Notes: a model not told the origin generated them from the letters alone. A DNA stretch of 50,782 nt from a virus (IMGVR_UViG_3300048589_000933:1-50782); one strand, 5' to 3'. Counted from the stretch's first letter, positions 1-6,508 are shown. Numbers and translations are program-made.

Positions 1-44
1 CTTTCACGGTTGCGACCGGGGTTCGAATCCCCGTGGGGACGCCA
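1..44 (+). tRNA. tRNA-Glu(UUC), 3' part (5' end outside window); prophage integration target
   Basis: Anticodon loop CTTTCAC, T-arm CGGGGTTCGAATCCCCG, 3' end GGGGACGCCA (CCA at 42-44). Confidence 0.93.
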
Positions 45-1533
45 CCTTAAACCCGCTTGCCGCGTCGAGTGTGTTCAGCTCGACGCGGTAATGCAGGGTG
101 GCGTCGGTAGTCTCTGGATCCAGCTCGACCCGATCGAGCAGTGCGGCGAGCGCGTCTTTGGTGGCTTCTCTGTTGTCCGCGTCGCGCAGATCGTCGAGCA
201 GTTCGACCATGCGCCGGCGGATATCCATGTCTGTGACCTGTGCCAGTGCCATTGCGGCCTGGTAGTCGCGCTCCTGTGCGCGGATCTGCTCGACTAGGGC
301 AACGCGTTCGCGCTCGAGCTGGTCGAGCTTGCGCACGGCGGGTCCTGGGTCGGCGAGTCTGCCGGCGAGATCCACTGCGCGGCTGATGCGGTCGGTGATG
401 CTGGCCAGCTGCGGCCGCAGGGCGGCGGCGGGGTCTTCGGGAGTTTCTTCGCGGCGGGTGGCCTTGGCGAACAGGCGCACCAGGTCGGTGGTCTGCAGGT
501 CGCTATGCACCTGGGCGACGATGGCGGCCTCGAGCTCGTCGCGCGCGACACGCTTGCCGGGTACGCGGTAGTAGCCCGCGCCATCGCTGTGCCAGGCGCG
601 ACCCTGCGGCGTGAACAGCATGCCGGTCAGCAGGTAAGACGCTGGCGTGCGGCGCGGACGGGTGGCTGAGTACTCCTCGAGGTGCTTCAGGATGCGCTCG
701 GCTTCTGCGTCGGTGATTACCCCGGGGTGGGTGTCTCGCTGCATCATCCATTCGGTGCGCGGCCGCCGGCGTGTTTTGCCTGCCTGTTGCTCGCTGTGCA
801 CGTTCCAGACAGTGTGCCCGGCGTAGGTAAGGGCGTTCCATTCGACGCCGACCAGTGAGGCCTTGGCGATGCGCGGGAGGCCTGGCGCGTGCTCGATCGC
901 GCGAGCCCGGGGCAGTCCGTTGGACCTGGCACGCAGGTAAGCGCCGATCGCGGCGGCGGCGGTATCTGCAAGCTCGAGGGTGGACTTGGTGACGGGCAGG
1001 CCCTCGCGGACGATGCCGGTGTCGATCTTGCGCAGGCGGTAGCCGATCGGCGCGCGGCCGCCGGCGCGGTAGCCGTCGCGGACGTTCTGCGCCATGCCGG
1101 CGAGGCCTTTCTCGCGGCTGGTGAGGCTATGCCATTCGTCCATCGCCTGCAGGATGGACTTGAGCAGCATTTCGGTGATGGGGTCAGCCTCGGGCACGCT
1201 CTTGTAGATCACGCGTACGCCGTGTTTCTTGCACTCGACCTCTTCGAACACGATGGAGATATGCCGGCGCCGCGCCAGGCGCGAGGTATCTAGCACCAGC
1301 AGGTGATCCCAGCCGCGGCGGGGGTTGCGCAGGGCTCGCAGCAGCTGCTGGAAGCCTGGGCGGTCGGTGTCTTTGCCGGACTCGACGACGTCGGCGAAGG
1401 TTTCAGCGATCGACAGGCCTCGGGACAGGGCCAGCGCTTTCAGCTCGCGGCGCTGGACGTCGACCGACACGTCCTTTCGATCCTTCGAGCTGCGGCAGTA
1501 GATCGCCGCGCTCCCGTGTGTTTGTGTCGCCAT
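4..1533 (-). CDS. Large serine recombinase (integrase)
   Basis: N-terminal YCRSSK catalytic motif, SG..DRPGF, DTSRLAR, GGRAPIGY recombinase region, then coiled coil. Adjacent to attL; GGAG upstream of the ATG. Confidence 0.93.
   Translation of the reverse strand: MATQTHGSAAIYCRSSKDRKDVSVDVQRRELKALALSRGLSIAETFADVVESGKDTDRPGFQQLLRALRNPRRGWDHLLVLDTSRLARRRHISIVFEEVECKKHGVRVIYKSVPEADPITEMLLKSILQAMDEWHSLTSREKGLAGMAQNVRDGYRAGGRAPIGYRLRKIDTGIVREGLPVTKSTLELADTAAAAIGAYLRARSNGLPRARAIEHAPGLPRIAKASLVGVEWNALTYAGHTVWNVHSEQQAGKTRRRPRTEWMMQRDTHPGVITDAEAERILKHLEEYSATRPRRTPASYLLTGMLFTPQGRAWHSDGAGYYRVPGKRVARDELEAAIVAQVHSDLQTTDLVRLFAKATRREETPEDPAAALRPQLASITDRISRAVDLAGRLADPGPAVRKLDQLERERVALVEQIRAQERDYQAAMALAQVTDMDIRRRMVELLDDLRDADNREATKDALAALLDRVELDPETTDATLHYRVELNTLDAASGFKVASPRGFEPRSQP
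30..45 (+). repeat. attL core CCCGTGGGGACGCCAC
   Basis: Identical to 43331-43346; overlaps the tRNA acceptor end. Confidence 0.93.
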
Positions 1534-1630
1534 CGATCCGACTCCGTTCCCGCGCCCGCAGCAACGGTACCACCACCGCGACGGCGATCGCTGGGCAGGG
1601 GGCGTTCGCGCTGCGGACGCGGATAGTCAT
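1403..1630 (-). CDS. Possible small protein (75 aa) coupled to the RT stop and overlapping the integrase start
   Basis: ATG at 1630 overlaps the RT TGA (ATGA); no recognisable domain. Confidence 0.3.
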   Translation of the reverse strand: MTIRVRSANAPCPAIAVAVVVPLLRARERSRIDGDTNTRERGDLLPQLEGSKGRVGRRPAPRAESAGPVPRPVDR

Positions 1631-3423
1631 AGGGTGGCCTGGCACCGCAGCCGCACCACCCGCCCTTCCATCGCCGCCGGGAAGCGCCTCTTGGCGGTGG
1701 CTGCCGGGAGCCAGCGGAAGCGCCGCAGCAGCGTCTGCCGCAGCCTGTGGCTGTCGGCGTGGGTGAAGTGGCCCTGGTAGCTGGCCCACACAGCGCGGAC
1801 CGCGCGCAGGCCGTCTGGCGTGGCGAGAATGCGCCGGCCGCGGACGTGGGTGGTCTCCCACTTCGCCAAGGCTTCGCGTGCGTGGCTGACGATGCGGCGG
1901 CGGACGGTGGTGTGGGTGGGGCGGACGATGTACCCGAGGAAGTCGATGCCGGTGGCGAGCGGCGCCAGGCGCTGATCGGCTTTGAGCTCGAGGCGCAGCG
2001 ACTGCTGCAGGAACTGCTCGATCTGCACTCGCCAGCACTCGAGCTGGGCGCGATCGTGGTGGACGATGACGAAGTCGTCGACGTAGCGCAGGTAGCGCTT
2101 GGCCTTGAGCGTGTGCTTGACGAATTGGTCGAGCTGGTCGAGGTAGACGTTAGCGAAGAACTGGCTGCTGAGGTTGCCGATCGGGATCCCGCAGCCCGTC
2201 GGTGCGTTCTGCAGTTGCTTGTGCAGTGGCACGAGTGCGCGGCGCTCAGGTGTGGTGCGGTAGTTGACGCCGGTGCGGTCAATGGATGAACGCAGCAGCG
2301 CGTGCATGGTGCGCTGGGCCGCCAGGCTGAGACCTTCCCGGGTAGTGCGCGTCTTCAGCAGCGCGTATAGCGTGGGGCGATGGATGCGGTTGAAGAAGTT
2401 GGCCACGTCGAGCTGCAGGAACCAGCCGCCACCCTGGCCGCTGTGTACCTCTCGCACGAACTGCTGCAGGCGGCGTACGGCGGCGTGGCTGCCCTTGCCG
2501 CGGCGATTGGCAAAGCTGTCGTGGATGAATGCCGGCTCATAGATGGCCTCGATCTGCGGCACCAGCCAGTGGTGCACGACGCGGTCGCCGAAGTCTGGCG
2601 CGTGGATCTCTCGCGCCTTTGGCCGGGTCGCGATGAAGCACGTCGACGGTTGCGGCTGCCACGTGCCGGCGTTGAGCTGCTCCTGGAGTTCGATCAGGCG
2701 ATCAGCCCAACGGGCATCGAACGCGAGGCGGTTGGCACTGGGTTTCTTGCTGCGGCGCGCGGCCTTCCACGCGGCGTGCAAGTCGGTGAAGCTGACCTGG
2801 TGTTCATCACCCTGCAACTCACGGGCCGGACCGCGAACCGCGCGCACGCGGTTGTTGTTGTCGCGGTGGTTGTTGTTGGCGTTGCCGTTGTTGAAGCTCA
2901 CGATCCACGCGTAAGCGGCAGGCGACGCGTCCCCGCAGACTTGCGACCCGCTCGAGCAGCCGTGCTGGTAGCGCGAGTTCGTCATTTGTAGACCTCCCAT
3001 CGGGAGGCGGGTACTCAGTTGCTGGGCGCGCTGCACGACGGGCGCTTGCCCTTGCGCATCCTGGCCCTTGGGGTGCTGCCCGGTCAGCTGGCGGTACCAA
3101 CCGCCAGCCTGCTTACCCAGTTCGCGAGCGCTGCGGAACAGCGCTTCAAACTGCGCAAGGCTGGTGAATGCACGCAGTCGGCTGCAAAGCTGCAGCTGTA
3201 TTTTCAGCTCATCAATGGCCCACACCAGATTCCACGCATGCTCGCGTTGCCTGGGTCGATCGCGCCAAGCGCGATGGGTGAGCGTGGCGATCGCCAGGGC
3301 CTTCGCGCGCAGGTCGCTGCCTGCCGCGTACCGGTGGTAGCGCGGGAAGCGACGAACAGCCAGCTCGATATCGAGCATCAGTCGCTCGGCAAGCTGTGCG
3401 ATAGGTGGCAGCGCGAAGGTCAT
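1627..3423 (-). CDS. Avd-(TR)-reverse transcriptase in one ORF (598 aa); RT may also start at ATG 2985
   Basis: Residues ~1-113 are Avd-like four-helix bundle (RFPRYHRY..G.DLR ... ELGKQAGGW). The C-terminal part has the DGR RT motifs KAREIHAPDFGDRVVHH, GIPIGNLSSQFFAN, YLRYVDD and GIDFLGY. No stop lies between them; GGAGG precedes ATG 2985. Confidence 0.93.
   Translation of the reverse strand: MTFALPPIAQLAERLMLDIELAVRRFPRYHRYAAGSDLRAKALAIATLTHRAWRDRPRQREHAWNLVWAIDELKIQLQLCSRLRAFTSLAQFEALFRSARELGKQAGGWYRQLTGQHPKGQDAQGQAPVVQRAQQLSTRLPMGGLQMTNSRYQHGCSSGSQVCGDASPAAYAWIVSFNNGNANNNHRDNNNRVRAVRGPARELQGDEHQVSFTDLHAAWKAARRSKKPSANRLAFDARWADRLIELQEQLNAGTWQPQPSTCFIATRPKAREIHAPDFGDRVVHHWLVPQIEAIYEPAFIHDSFANRRGKGSHAAVRRLQQFVREVHSGQGGGWFLQLDVANFFNRIHRPTLYALLKTRTTREGLSLAAQRTMHALLRSSIDRTGVNYRTTPERRALVPLHKQLQNAPTGCGIPIGNLSSQFFANVYLDQLDQFVKHTLKAKRYLRYVDDFVIVHHDRAQLECWRVQIEQFLQQSLRLELKADQRLAPLATGIDFLGYIVRPTHTTVRRRIVSHAREALAKWETTHVRGRRILATPDGLRAVRAVWASYQGHFTHADSHRLRQTLLRRFRWLPAATAKRRFPAAMEGRVVRLRCQATL
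2821..2929 (-). repeat. DGR template repeat (TR), ~109 bp
   Basis: Nine AAC codons and 23 adenines on the coding strand; aligns without gaps to VR1 and VR2. Confidence 0.96.
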
Positions 3424-3442
3424 GGGAGAGCGTCAGAAAGGC

Positions 3443-3955
3443 CTAGAACTGACGGGCCGGACCGCGAACCGCGCGCACGCGGTTGTAGCCGTCGCGGTGG
3501 AAGCCGCTGGCGCTGCCGCTGCCGAAGCACACGAGCCACGCGAAAGCGGCAGGCGACGGCGCGTAGGGCGTGCCGGTCCAGTACCACTCGGACTTGCACG
3601 CGGGGAACGCCTCGGTGTCGATGGCGGGCTCGTGCCGGGTGTCGTCGACCAGCGTGAGCAGCTCGGTGCGTGTCGGCAGGCGCCAGTCGTCGTGCCCGCC
3701 CAAGCGTAGCGCGCGACAGGCGGCCTCGGCGGCCGCCCAGGGCACAGCCTTGGCGGTGGTGTCTTCCTGCGACCACTGCAGGCCGGTGTGCGTGTCGGTG
3801 ACGATGCCATCTGCCGCCTGGAATCGATCGGCGGTTGGGTCGTTGACGGCATGAACTGCAGTCGGCGCCGTCAGCGCAAACGGACGAAGCTCTGCGAGGG
3901 CCGCGAGTGCTGTGATCAAGGTGTCGTCATCGCAGCGCAGGGTAAGTTCGAGCAT
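3443..3955 (-). CDS. DGR target 1: DUF1566/Lcl-type C-lectin-fold protein (170 aa)
   Basis: VTDTHTGLQW, W..A.AAC, DWRLPT..EL, YWTGT, RVRAVRG motifs; VR at the C-terminus; AGGAG upstream. Confidence 0.92.
   Translation of the reverse strand: MLELTLRCDDDTLITALAALAELRPFALTAPTAVHAVNDPTADRFQAADGIVTDTHTGLQWSQEDTTAKAVPWAAAEAACRALRLGGHDDWRLPTRTELLTLVDDTRHEPAIDTEAFPACKSEWYWTGTPYAPSPAAFAWLVCFGSGSASGFHRDGYNRVRAVRGPARQF
3452..3558 (-). repeat. Variable repeat VR1
   Basis: 107-bp gapless match to TR 2821-2927 with 15 mismatches, all at TR adenines. Confidence 0.96.
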
Positions 3956-3986
3956 GGTGATCTCCTGGAGAAAAGCTCAGAAAGGC

Positions 3987-4418
3987 CTAGGACTGACGGG
4001 CCGGACCGCGAACCGCGCGCACGCGGCCGCTGCCGTCGCGGTGGCTGTCGCGGGCGTAGCCGCCGTAGAAGCTCACGACCCACGCGTAAGCGGCAGGCGA
4101 CGCGGCGTAGGGTGTGGCAGTCCAGTACCAGTCCGACTTGCACGTTGGGAACGCGGCGGTGTCGATCGTGGGCTTGGCGCGCGTTCTGTCGGCAAGCGGG
4201 AACAGTTCCTCGACGGTGGGCAGTCGCCAGTCGGTATGTCCGGCAAACGCCTGGGCGTTCAGTGCAGCGATTGCCGCCTCGGCTTCTGAGTGGTCGACAT
4301 CAGCGTCGACGGCGTCGTCGCGCGTCCACTGCAAGCCGGTGGTGGTGTCGGTGACGACGAGCTGGTCGGATGAGACGGAGAAGCGTGAGGCGGTTACGTT
4401 TGCGGCTTGTGCGTTCAT
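3987..4418 (-). CDS. DGR target 2: DUF1566/Lcl-type protein (143 aa; alternative in-frame start 4535)
   Basis: Paralog of target 1 (VTDTTTGLQW, DWRLPTVEEL, YWTAT, RVRAVRG); GAGGA upstream of ATG 4418. Confidence 0.92.
   Translation of the reverse strand: MNAQAANVTASRFSVSSDQLVVTDTTTGLQWTRDDAVDADVDHSEAEAAIAALNAQAFAGHTDWRLPTVEELFPLADRTRAKPTIDTAAFPTCKSDWYWTATPYAASPAAYAWVVSFYGGYARDSHRDGSGRVRAVRGPARQS
3996..4104 (-). repeat. Variable repeat VR2
   Basis: 109-bp gapless match to TR 2821-2929 with 14 mismatches, all at TR adenines. Confidence 0.96.
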
Positions 4419-4531
4419 GTGGGATTCCTCGAGTGGTGTTGGGCTACGGGTAACGCGTCTTGCGTCATCGTCGGCATGCCGCTGCCGGCGCAGGGCTCGC
4501 CGCTCCGGCGTGTCGCCGCTGATGTCGGTGC

Positions 4532-6508
4532 TCATTTGGCGGGCTTCTTTGCCGCTGCCTTTTTCGCGGCGGTCTTCGCGGCGGCTGGCTTGGCCTTGAG
4601 CTTGGGGGCGTTTTTGCGTAGCGCGTAGCCCGGGCGGCGCAGGGGCTTGGGCAGCCAGCCGCTGCGGCGGGTGAGCTCCTCGGCTTTGCCGGCGAGTTCG
4701 GCTTTCTTGAGGCCGGTGAGCTGGGCAGCGACGGTCTTGCCGCACACCTCGGCAACGGCTTCGATGGCGAGGGCGGCGGGCACCAGGCTGAAGAACGTCT
4801 CGGCGGTGGGCTGCCAGTGGTCGGCCATGTTCAGGTCGAGGGCGTCTGCGATGGCGACGGCGCCGAAGGAGGTGCCGCCGCCGCGCATGACGGCGTCGAG
4901 CGTCATCACGGGCACGCTGGCCAGCAGGCCGACGACGGTGTCGCGGGTTTGCTCGAGCAGCCAGGGCAGCAGGCCGGCACGAGTGCCAGGCACGTGCAGG
5001 GTGTAGCGCATGTCCTCGAGGGCTTGCGCGGTTTGGGTGAGATCGGGGTTGGCGTCGAGGTCGGCGAAACCGAGCTTGTGCAGCTCACGGGTGGCGCTTT
5101 CGGCCTTCACCTGGATGGGCAGATCGCCGCCGAATTGAGGCGGATAGATCAACGGCACGAGCAAGGTGTAGGCGAGCGTGGCGAGCGCTACGTCGGCGCG
5201 CTTGAGCAGCTCGGCCTGCAGGGCAACAGTGCGGTGGGCACTGAGGCGGCGCAGCATGCTTTCGGCCAGCGTGGGCGCGGGCTTGGGGGCGGGTGTGCCG
5301 TCTTCGGTTTGAGTGGCGGCGGCGGCCTGGCGCGCGGCTTGCGGGGTTTCGGCGATGAGGCCGCGGGTGATCTCGAGCGTGCCGCTGTGGCCGAGCTTGA
5401 CGCAGGCGCCGGCTTTGGCCTTTTGGCGGTCTGACCACACTTCTGCCGTGGCGCTGAGTTCCTTGATGCGGGCGGTGATCAGTTCGCGCTCGTCGTAGGC
5501 GGCCTCGAAGTCGAAATCGCCCGCTTCTTCGGCCTCCTCGGCTTGCGTCAGTTCGTCATCGAGCTGCATCGCGCGGGCTTCGAGCTGCTGCAGCTCGGCC
5601 TTGGCATCGTCACTTAGCTCGCTGCGCCTTGGCTGGCTGCGGTTGAACTTGTAGACGAAGCTGTGATCGTCGTAGTCCAGCAGCTTGACCCAGCTCCATC
5701 CCTCAGCGCGCAGGGCTTCGGCGGCGGCTTCTAGCTTCTCTGTGCCCAGACGGTCGAGCAGGTCGATATCGGCGACGTAGCCGGCGCCAGGCTCGAAGAG
5801 GTCGCGCACCACGGCGCCGCCCGCGGCTTCGTAGGCGGCGAGGCCCACGAAGACCACGCGCCGGTCACTGCTGTGCACGTGCTTCTCGGTGAGGGCCTCG
5901 CGCAGGCGGCGCGGCTCACGCGCCCAGGGTTGCCGACCATCGGGGCCCCACGCGCGCTCCTGGGCGGCGTGGTCGTCGGTGATGGCGAGGGCCATCAGCT
6001 GCTCGAGGGTGGCCTTGTCTTCGCGGAAGAGCCGCAGCAGCACGGGCGAGAGGTTGGCCAAGCGCAGGCGGCGTTCGACGACAAGCGGCGACACGCCGAA
6101 GCGGGCGGCGATAGTGTCGACGCCCATGCCCTCGGCGGCCAAGTCGCGAAAGGCCACGAACTCGTCATGCGGGTGCATGCGCTCGCGCACGGTGTTCTCG
6201 GCCGTGCTGGCTTCGAGCACGCGGCTGGTATCGGTTTCGATGAGGCAGGGGATGCCGTCGGCCAGCTCGGGCGGCAGTCGGTCTTGCTGGGCCAGCAGCT
6301 TGAGGGCGGCGAGGCGGCGGCCGCCGGCGATGACGCCGAAGCCGCCCATCGACTTGGGCGATGGCTCCACGATGAGGTTTTGCAGCAGGCCGAGCGCGGC
6401 GATGTTGGCGGCGAGGCCTTCGACATCCTTGCCGCCGGTGCGGCGGGCATTGTGCGTCGAGAGGTGGAGGTCGGAGAGCGGAATCAGCGTGGCGCTTGCG
6501 TTGGACAT
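4532..6508 (-). CDS. Long ParB/Spo0J-family protein with Lys/Ala-rich C-terminal tail
   Basis: LAANI..LGLLQNLIV, VIAGGRRLAAL, EN..RE.MHP.DE, HTH IAARFGVS...V.RRLRLA; ends KAKPAAAKTAAKKAAAKKPAK. Confidence 0.88.
   Translation of the reverse strand: MSNASATLIPLSDLHLSTHNARRTGGKDVEGLAANIAALGLLQNLIVEPSPKSMGGFGVIAGGRRLAALKLLAQQDRLPPELADGIPCLIETDTSRVLEASTAENTVRERMHPHDEFVAFRDLAAEGMGVDTIAARFGVSPLVVERRLRLANLSPVLLRLFREDKATLEQLMALAITDDHAAQERAWGPDGRQPWAREPRRLREALTEKHVHSSDRRVVFVGLAAYEAAGGAVVRDLFEPGAGYVADIDLLDRLGTEKLEAAAEALRAEGWSWVKLLDYDDHSFVYKFNRSQPRRSELSDDAKAELQQLEARAMQLDDELTQAEEAEEAGDFDFEAAYDERELITARIKELSATAEVWSDRQKAKAGACVKLGHSGTLEITRGLIAETPQAARQAAAATQTEDGTPAPKPAPTLAESMLRRLSAHRTVALQAELLKRADVALATLAYTLLVPLIYPPQFGGDLPIQVKAESATRELHKLGFADLDANPDLTQTAQALEDMRYTLHVPGTRAGLLPWLLEQTRDTVVGLLASVPVMTLDAVMRGGGTSFGAVAIADALDLNMADHWQPTAETFFSLVPAALAIEAVAEVCGKTVAAQLTGLKKAELAGKAEELTRRSGWLPKPLRRPGYALRKNAPKLKAKPAAAKTAAKKAAAKKPAK

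Follow-up and report, generated by a model that had tools for sequence, protein, structure and literature searches.

What might explain why a phage diversity-generating retroelement (DGR) carries Avd, the template repeat (TR) and the reverse transcriptase (RT) in one uninterrupted reading frame? The window, by which we mean the whole of the IMG/VR virus sequence analysed here (50,782 bases, 63-73% G+C), contains on its minus strand a frame of 598 codons that starts with ATG at 3423, ends at 1627 and is open throughout in the ORF listing, and its translated product includes the peptide AYAWIVSFNNGNANNNHRDNNNRVRAVRGPAR. A preliminary description of this DNA had reported the lack of any stop between the Avd start at 3423 and the RT stop at 1627, correctly as the listing confirms, and had considered a true Avd-RT fusion with a translated template. 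The explanation that we favor, with a probability of roughly 0.88, is that an otherwise ordinary phage DGR core has had its two overlapping genes joined by a small deletion private to this record.

A DGR with two DUF1566-type targets

The minus-strand locus is a genuine DGR that comprises two DUF1566/Lcl_C targets, Avd, a TR and a BPP-1-type RT. The identity given to the region in the preliminary description, the Avd, TR and RT of a DGR, agrees with the Pfam and NCBIfam matches, with the TR/VR comparison and with the RT fold. Copies of the repeat at 2811-2927 are found at 3442-3558 and 3986-4102, each lying at the C-terminal end of an Lcl_C/DUF1566 protein, and the TR does share its reading frame with these variable repeats (VRs), as had been noticed. 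Within this repeat the TR proper (2821..2927, minus strand, 107 nt) differs from both VRs exclusively at its adenines (16/16 differences for VR1 and 15/15 for VR2), the first TR/VR difference at a base other than A being at 2820, and such adenine-only differences indicate that the element was active not long ago. VR1 (3452..3558, minus strand) lies at the C-terminal end of the target gene at 3443..3955, which encodes 170 aa, and VR2 (3996..4102, minus strand) at that of the target gene at 3987..4745; the Lcl_C matches of the two targets have E values of 1.5e-30 and 3.2e-31 (Pfam). The AAC-rich TR was the only tract reported by Tandem Repeats Finder.

The longest ORF for target 2 (3987-4745, minus strand) shares about 200 nt with the final part of a ParB-like gene of 658 aa (4532-6508, minus strand). 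Its true start is probably an internal Met, which would make target 2 about as small as target 1. Directly downstream of the RT, at the end of the record, lies a large serine recombinase (4-1533, minus strand; Resolvase E 1.9e-21 and a weak Recombinase domain), and the DGR therefore adjoins a likely integration module.

Domains encoded by the 598-codon frame

The N-terminal part of the product is recognized as Avd by NF033474 ('DGR protein Avd', NCBIfam), which matches residues 7-110 with E 3.3e-11 over profile positions 2-103 of 104, at 43 bits against a cutoff of 80, and by bAvd (Pfam), which matches residues 12-112 with E 1.9e-4 and 22.3 bits, below the gathering score of 40. Compared with Avd from 31 relatives, this part shows 41-61% identity; when PDB sequences were searched with a profile of Avd, no match fell below E 0.4. 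RVT_1 (Pfam) matches residues 269-499 of the 598-aa product with E 1e-16, and a weak Lcl_C match (Pfam) at residues 167-197 corresponds to the translated TR. In an AlphaFold/AF2 model of the whole frame, the Avd helices occupy residues 7-114, pLDDT is below 50 at residues 120-207, and a confidently predicted RT begins at about residue 208. The five best Foldseek matches are all BPP-1 bRT chains (8ub7_A, E 2e-20, TM 0.86 on the target), and the RT keeps every invariant column of the homologue alignment (A2).

The part of avd still in its own frame spans 3007..3423 on the minus strand (residues 1-139), with the helical-bundle core at residues ~7-114 followed by a conserved tail up to '...QRAQQLSTR'. 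The RT gene, laid out as in relatives, spans 1627..2985 on the same strand (452 aa plus stop) and comprises the ATG at 2985, a leader of 19 codons, the TR, a short linker and an RT core that begins at about 2802. At 63-73% G+C, long open frames come cheaply in this record, and several out-of-frame ORFs of 200-280 aa overlap the 598-codon stretch. An open fused frame is what any +1 or -2 indel near the end of avd would be expected to produce, since only about eight stop-free codons are needed before the RT start.

Avd and RT are separate in related loci

Two independent samples were compared with the record. From IMG/VR, 80 related loci were fetched through RT-core motifs and their frames scored by script, 76 of them having both Avd and RT, and from genome contigs 59 of 80 loci had both avd and RT. 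In none of these 135 related loci does avd read into RT (0/76 in IMG/VR, 0/59 in genome contigs). The prevailing layout in IMG/VR, found in 72 of the 76, places avd in the +1 frame relative to RT and ends it at a TGA that overlaps an in-frame start codon (ATG in 70, GTG in 2), from which the frame is open to the RT core. Of the four exceptions, L049 and L072 have the ATGA, but out of frame with the RT core, and L080 and L083 are distant (42% identity) and have separate genes. Among genome contigs with an RT identity of at least 55% the same ATGA/GTGA overlap is shared by 32 of 35, the exceptions being L102 and L110, which are out of frame, and L117, which has CTGA; in the 24 genome loci with an RT identity below 55%, avd and RT are mostly apart. 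The fused frame is thus, to judge from the sequences compared, private to this record. The fusion contemplated in the preliminary description is not conserved, and the idea of a true Avd-RT fusion finds no support in the relatives, in which avd stops at the TGA overlapping the RT start, an outcome that the description itself had named as counting against a fusion.

The combination of an ATGA overlap with a TR inside the RT frame is largely confined to the clade with an RT identity of at least 55% (32/35, vs 1/24 of the farther loci), and this close clade is mostly Xanthomonadales/Lysobacterales, judged by record titles. Named relatives are Lysobacter, Dyella, Xanthomonas, Stenotrophomonas and Rhodanobacter, and 11 records of named phages match, each over at most 11% of the query and in the RT core only. 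Of 111 close relatives, 4 (L049, L072, L102 and L110) have the frame interrupted elsewhere, on the way from the RT start to its core, so private indels in this type of locus are not rare in public records. L049 also holds N's and a new in-frame ATG in its leader.

Protein searches gave a similar picture. In a search with the 598-aa product, its own protein formed a cluster of one member from one contig, and among the matches listed the 119 others were RT-only proteins of 420-516 aa, 59-71% identical and covering 64-77% of the query. When the Avd part was compared with word-sharing candidates among proteins of 328-1047 aa, it found its own protein and three others, none a clean fusion: one is Avd with RadC, and the other two consist of Avd/RT pieces in scrambled frames. 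With an Avd profile, 1796 matches were obtained among 1.84 billion representatives; the best 150 include eight longer than 240 aa, with RVT_1 in none of the eight. Among 5.8 billion clustered proteins, searched through word-sharing candidates for the Avd part, no clean Avd-RT fusion was found.

An indel at the end of avd

How, then, did the stop of avd come to be missed? Family Avd proteins are 140-155 aa long and have a conserved tail, '…HPKGQN…QRAQ.LSTR.AS…', which ends a few residues later at the ATGA. The record matches this tail in frame as far as '…QRAQQLSTR' (codon CGC at 3009-3007), and past that point a three-frame translation finds the family ending again in the +1 frame, as SRWEVYK* at the TGA at 2984-2982. 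The ancestral avd end, now out of frame, is at 2982..3005 on the minus strand (TCC CGA TGG GAG GTC TAC AAA TGA), and comparable avd endings are '...NWEVYR*' in L004 and '...AGVYK*' in L067. MAFFT places a 5-nt gap in the record between 3008 and 3007, where relatives have ACC CGY GCC GCC TCC, so the frameshift site can be put at 3005..3010 (minus strand), with a net change of -2 (or +1) nt. Because the length of the avd tail varies among relatives, the event could equally be -2 or +1, a frameshift either way. The residues at the junction, LPMGGLQ, result from reading the conserved end of avd and the SD-like sequence out of frame. The ATG at 2985-2983 is in frame and the TGA at 2984-2982 is in the +1 frame, which bears out the earlier recognition of ATG 2985 as an RT start overlapped by a TGA.

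No public sequencing run was found that contains the stretch (best share of words 0.09), and contigs assembled at 80% likeness (X1-X4) were short pieces of relatives, none of them bridging 3000-3027. The record has uninterrupted frames of 1207-1313 codons, which with so much G+C still leaves room for local indels.

We picture the locus as follows. In the clade, avd (~140-155 codons) normally ends at a TGA overlapping the RT start as ATGA, with an SD-like GAGG/GGGG upstream of the RT start sequestered in a small hairpin; the RT frame consists of a leader of ~19 codons, the TR, a short linker and the RT core, and the stretch that begins in the avd tail and ends shortly after the TR also encodes a structured DGR RNA with a duplex that brackets the template. 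In the record, the 5-nt gap (net -2) moves the last ~9 avd codons into the RT frame, and the avd stop is missed. As written, the record encodes a 598-aa Avd-RT chimera and no free Avd, and RT alone could still initiate at ATG 2985, the GGGAGG being retained. Both halves otherwise look intact, which suggests that the event is recent or artefactual. The change would be a real mutation of recent date or else an error of assembly, and we lean slightly toward the former, since homopolymer miscalls do not account for a gap of 5 nt. If real, the shift has probably left mutagenic homing crippled and has not produced a new form of the enzyme. As a one-off frameshift, the fusion teaches nothing new about Avd-RT assembly.

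Alternatives to a private deletion

The alternative that survives best, very improbable as we consider it, is a true and selected Avd-RT fusion, made as one polypeptide with extra RT produced from the internal ATG 2985. It would account for an open frame with both domains complete, for the retention of the internal SD and ATG, and for VRs that were diversified recently. Against it stand the absence of a fused frame from all 135 related loci, the failure to find a clean fusion either among the word-sharing candidates from the 5.8 billion clustered proteins or in the best 150 of the 1796 profile matches, and the junction LPMGGLQ, which is merely the avd ending and SD read out of frame. The architecture of the BPP-1 complex also weighs against it. 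The bRT:Avd:RNA stoichiometry is taken as 1:5:1 in the available text of 10.1101/2023.10.23.563531, that is, an Avd pentamer with one RT, and when a bulky pentameric protein was joined to the Avd C-terminus, RNA with a truncated TR was reverse transcribed and RNA with an intact TR was not, according to the same text. That experiment concerns another DGR and another fusion partner than those of this record. By inference, giving each Avd protomer an RT of 450 aa would be a hindrance and not an aid. In the literature on Avd fusions we found nothing relevant beyond an engineered Avd-Fae fusion.

A private origin and a working product could also be combined. The deletion would then be real and the 598-aa chimera functional, with helper and polymerase in one chain and RT from the internal start added to it, and this we regard as very improbable. 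Several observations nevertheless count against the explanation that we prefer. The best RT identity among the listed homologues is 71%, and a very young lineage with the fusion would escape notice; both domains are complete and the linker of ~90 residues is predicted to be disordered, so that the sequence forbids no working chimera; and the adenine-only TR-VR differences speak for recent DGR activity. Were the chimera to work, there would be five RT domains per Avd pentamer, and the 5:1 Avd:RT architecture would not be obligatory.

A programmed switch between free Avd and the fusion, whether through frameshifting by the ribosome or through a tract prone to slippage, is hardly credible: the SD-like GGGAGG just downstream of the shift site speaks for it, but Tandem Repeats Finder reports no tandem repeat at 3000-3015, no slippery heptamer is seen in the record sequence, the 5-nt gap falls in a C/G-rich, non-repetitive stretch, and relatives show no frame variation at the site, loci with the ATGA layout keeping one frame relation.

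The RT of the clade is translated through its template

The loss of the avd stop in one record, explained most probably by a private deletion, leaves a property of the locus that is common to its relatives. The translated template mentioned in the preliminary description holds clade-wide, since in relatives the RT ORF opens at the ATG corresponding to 2985 and continues across the TR. In an alignment of 26 RT homologues, 22 start at a Met matching M147 (ATG 2985) and have a translated TR; one of the other four starts further upstream and three further downstream. The RT start with an SD-like GAGG/GGGG is present in 69 of 70 unique loci. In the record this element is GGGAGG at 2993..2998 (minus strand), 7 nt before ATG 2985, and it can pair with CCUCC at 3007-3003 in a small hairpin, which would hide the ribosome-binding site. 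The distance from the RT start to the RT core takes 17 distinct values between 126 and 198 nt, all of them in frame, and downstream of the TR, ahead of the RT core, 53 of the 70 unique loci have no in-frame ATG, GTG or TTG. These results show that the ATGA is where the RT of this clade starts and that its translation passes through the TR. A start after the TR (TTG 2817 in the record) was considered and rejected as the family start, since only 17 of the 70 unique loci have an in-frame ATG, GTG or TTG there. Because the RT of the clade is made only by translating its own template, the same stretch of RNA must be both message and template. One point that may interest DGR specialists in this Xanthomonadales-type clade is the coupling of the RT start to the avd stop through the ATGA.

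Three loci (L014, L020 and L069) cross the TR in another frame, which gives a Thr/Ser-rich rather than an Asn-rich peptide, yet regain the RT frame. This switch of TR frame, together with the predicted disorder of the segment, suggests that it is the open frame that is kept and not a particular peptide. The leader peptide 'MT.PRY..GC.AGSQ' was considered as a protein-level constraint and rejected in favor of a constraint at the RNA level, because of a covarying hairpin, a weak codon-position signal and the 3 of 70 unique loci that use another TR frame. Two RT homologues of 515-516 aa (P0016 and P0033) have an in-frame insertion of ~70 residues between the TR-encoded segment and the RT core.

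A covarying RNA structure overlies the coding sequence

RNAalifold applied to 48 sequences (alignment A3) gave 40 pairs in eight helices, corresponding to 2810-3073 of the record (minus strand). Helix cells are paired in 93.9% of cases, and sliding the partners lowers this to 33-47%. Covariation scores 0.437 vs at most 0.099, and none of 500 shuffles reached the observed values. A structured DGR RNA, with helices whose role is putative, covers the avd tail, the leader and the TR flanks.

The RT leader (2928..2985, minus strand) contains a covarying hairpin, 2977-2971/2957-2951 (helix 7), and a strand at 2938-2932 that pairs with the avd tail at 3011-3008 (helix 5). A conserved strand containing GUGAGU (2810..2823, minus strand) covers the TR's 3' end (2823-2821) together with the bases next to it, and pairs with the avd tail at 3022-3013 (through 2823-2814) and 3073-3071 (helices 4 and 1), thereby bracketing leader and TR; one column pair of this long-range duplex, 73/324, is CG in 15 sequences, AU in 11, UG in 10 and UA in 10. 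Within the avd tail there is a further covarying hairpin (3025..3066, minus strand), formed by 3066-3064/3027-3025 and 3058-3052/3038-3032 (helices 2 and 3), in which changes on both sides are seen in 10 of 10 pairs, and third codon positions are conserved in the avd-tail blocks that flank it. The SD hairpin is helix 6 (columns 90-93 with 106-109) and also covaries. The gap in the record, as aligned, costs the tail-leader helix three pairs and the SD hairpin one; on our reading of the alignments, both could still form in the record in shorter versions. A second point that may interest DGR specialists is that, with clear covariation, RNA elements around the TR are embedded in the codons of the avd tail and of the RT leader.

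Comparison with known systems

The locus resembles the BPP-1 DGR (mtd-avd-TR-brt) in its order of target(s), avd, TR and RT, in its adenine-specific mutagenesis and in the fold of its RT, which is closest to bRT 8ub7_A. It differs in having two small DUF1566-type targets and no Mtd, in the ATGA overlap of avd and RT and the TR inside the RT frame, both of which characterize its clade, and, in this record, in the loss of the avd stop. The available text of 10.1101/2023.10.23.563531 describes the last avd codons of BPP-1 as pairing with the spacer after the TR, in an avd:Sp duplex called the 'cPRT Stop', and the pairing of the avd 3' end with the sequence after the TR in our clade is like it. 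Unlike in BPP-1, the upstream strand of the duplex does not immediately adjoin the TR but lies ~90 nt before it, and this is beyond the 40 nt examined in the published cPRT-Stop survey, as that text describes it.

A TR that overlaps the annotated RT ORF defines structural group 3 of DiGReF, according to the available text of Schillinger et al. (PMC3521204), the only paper that we found on DGR TRs within an RT gene. The present clade is like that group in having its TR in the 5' part of the RT ORF, and the RefSeq/JGI annotations of RT in relatives likewise start upstream of the TR. In the same available text, layouts are classified, the translation of the overlap is not asked about and an avd overlap is not mentioned. 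The clade-wide points made here extend, and do not overturn, the published group 3 layout and the cPRT Stop duplex.

In its targets the record recalls the Legionella-type DGRs (CLec2, 'category d', DUF1566 targets), which, in the available text of PMC5758913, share with it the Lcl_C/DUF1566 targets and a C-terminal VR; the likeness is one of target type, and in contrast to the Legionella DGR the present one is from a phage record and a Xanthomonadales-like clade. Cassettes with more than one target are reported there as about 15% of DGRs (Wu et al. 2018, PMC5758913), and the record, with its two targets, resembles these.
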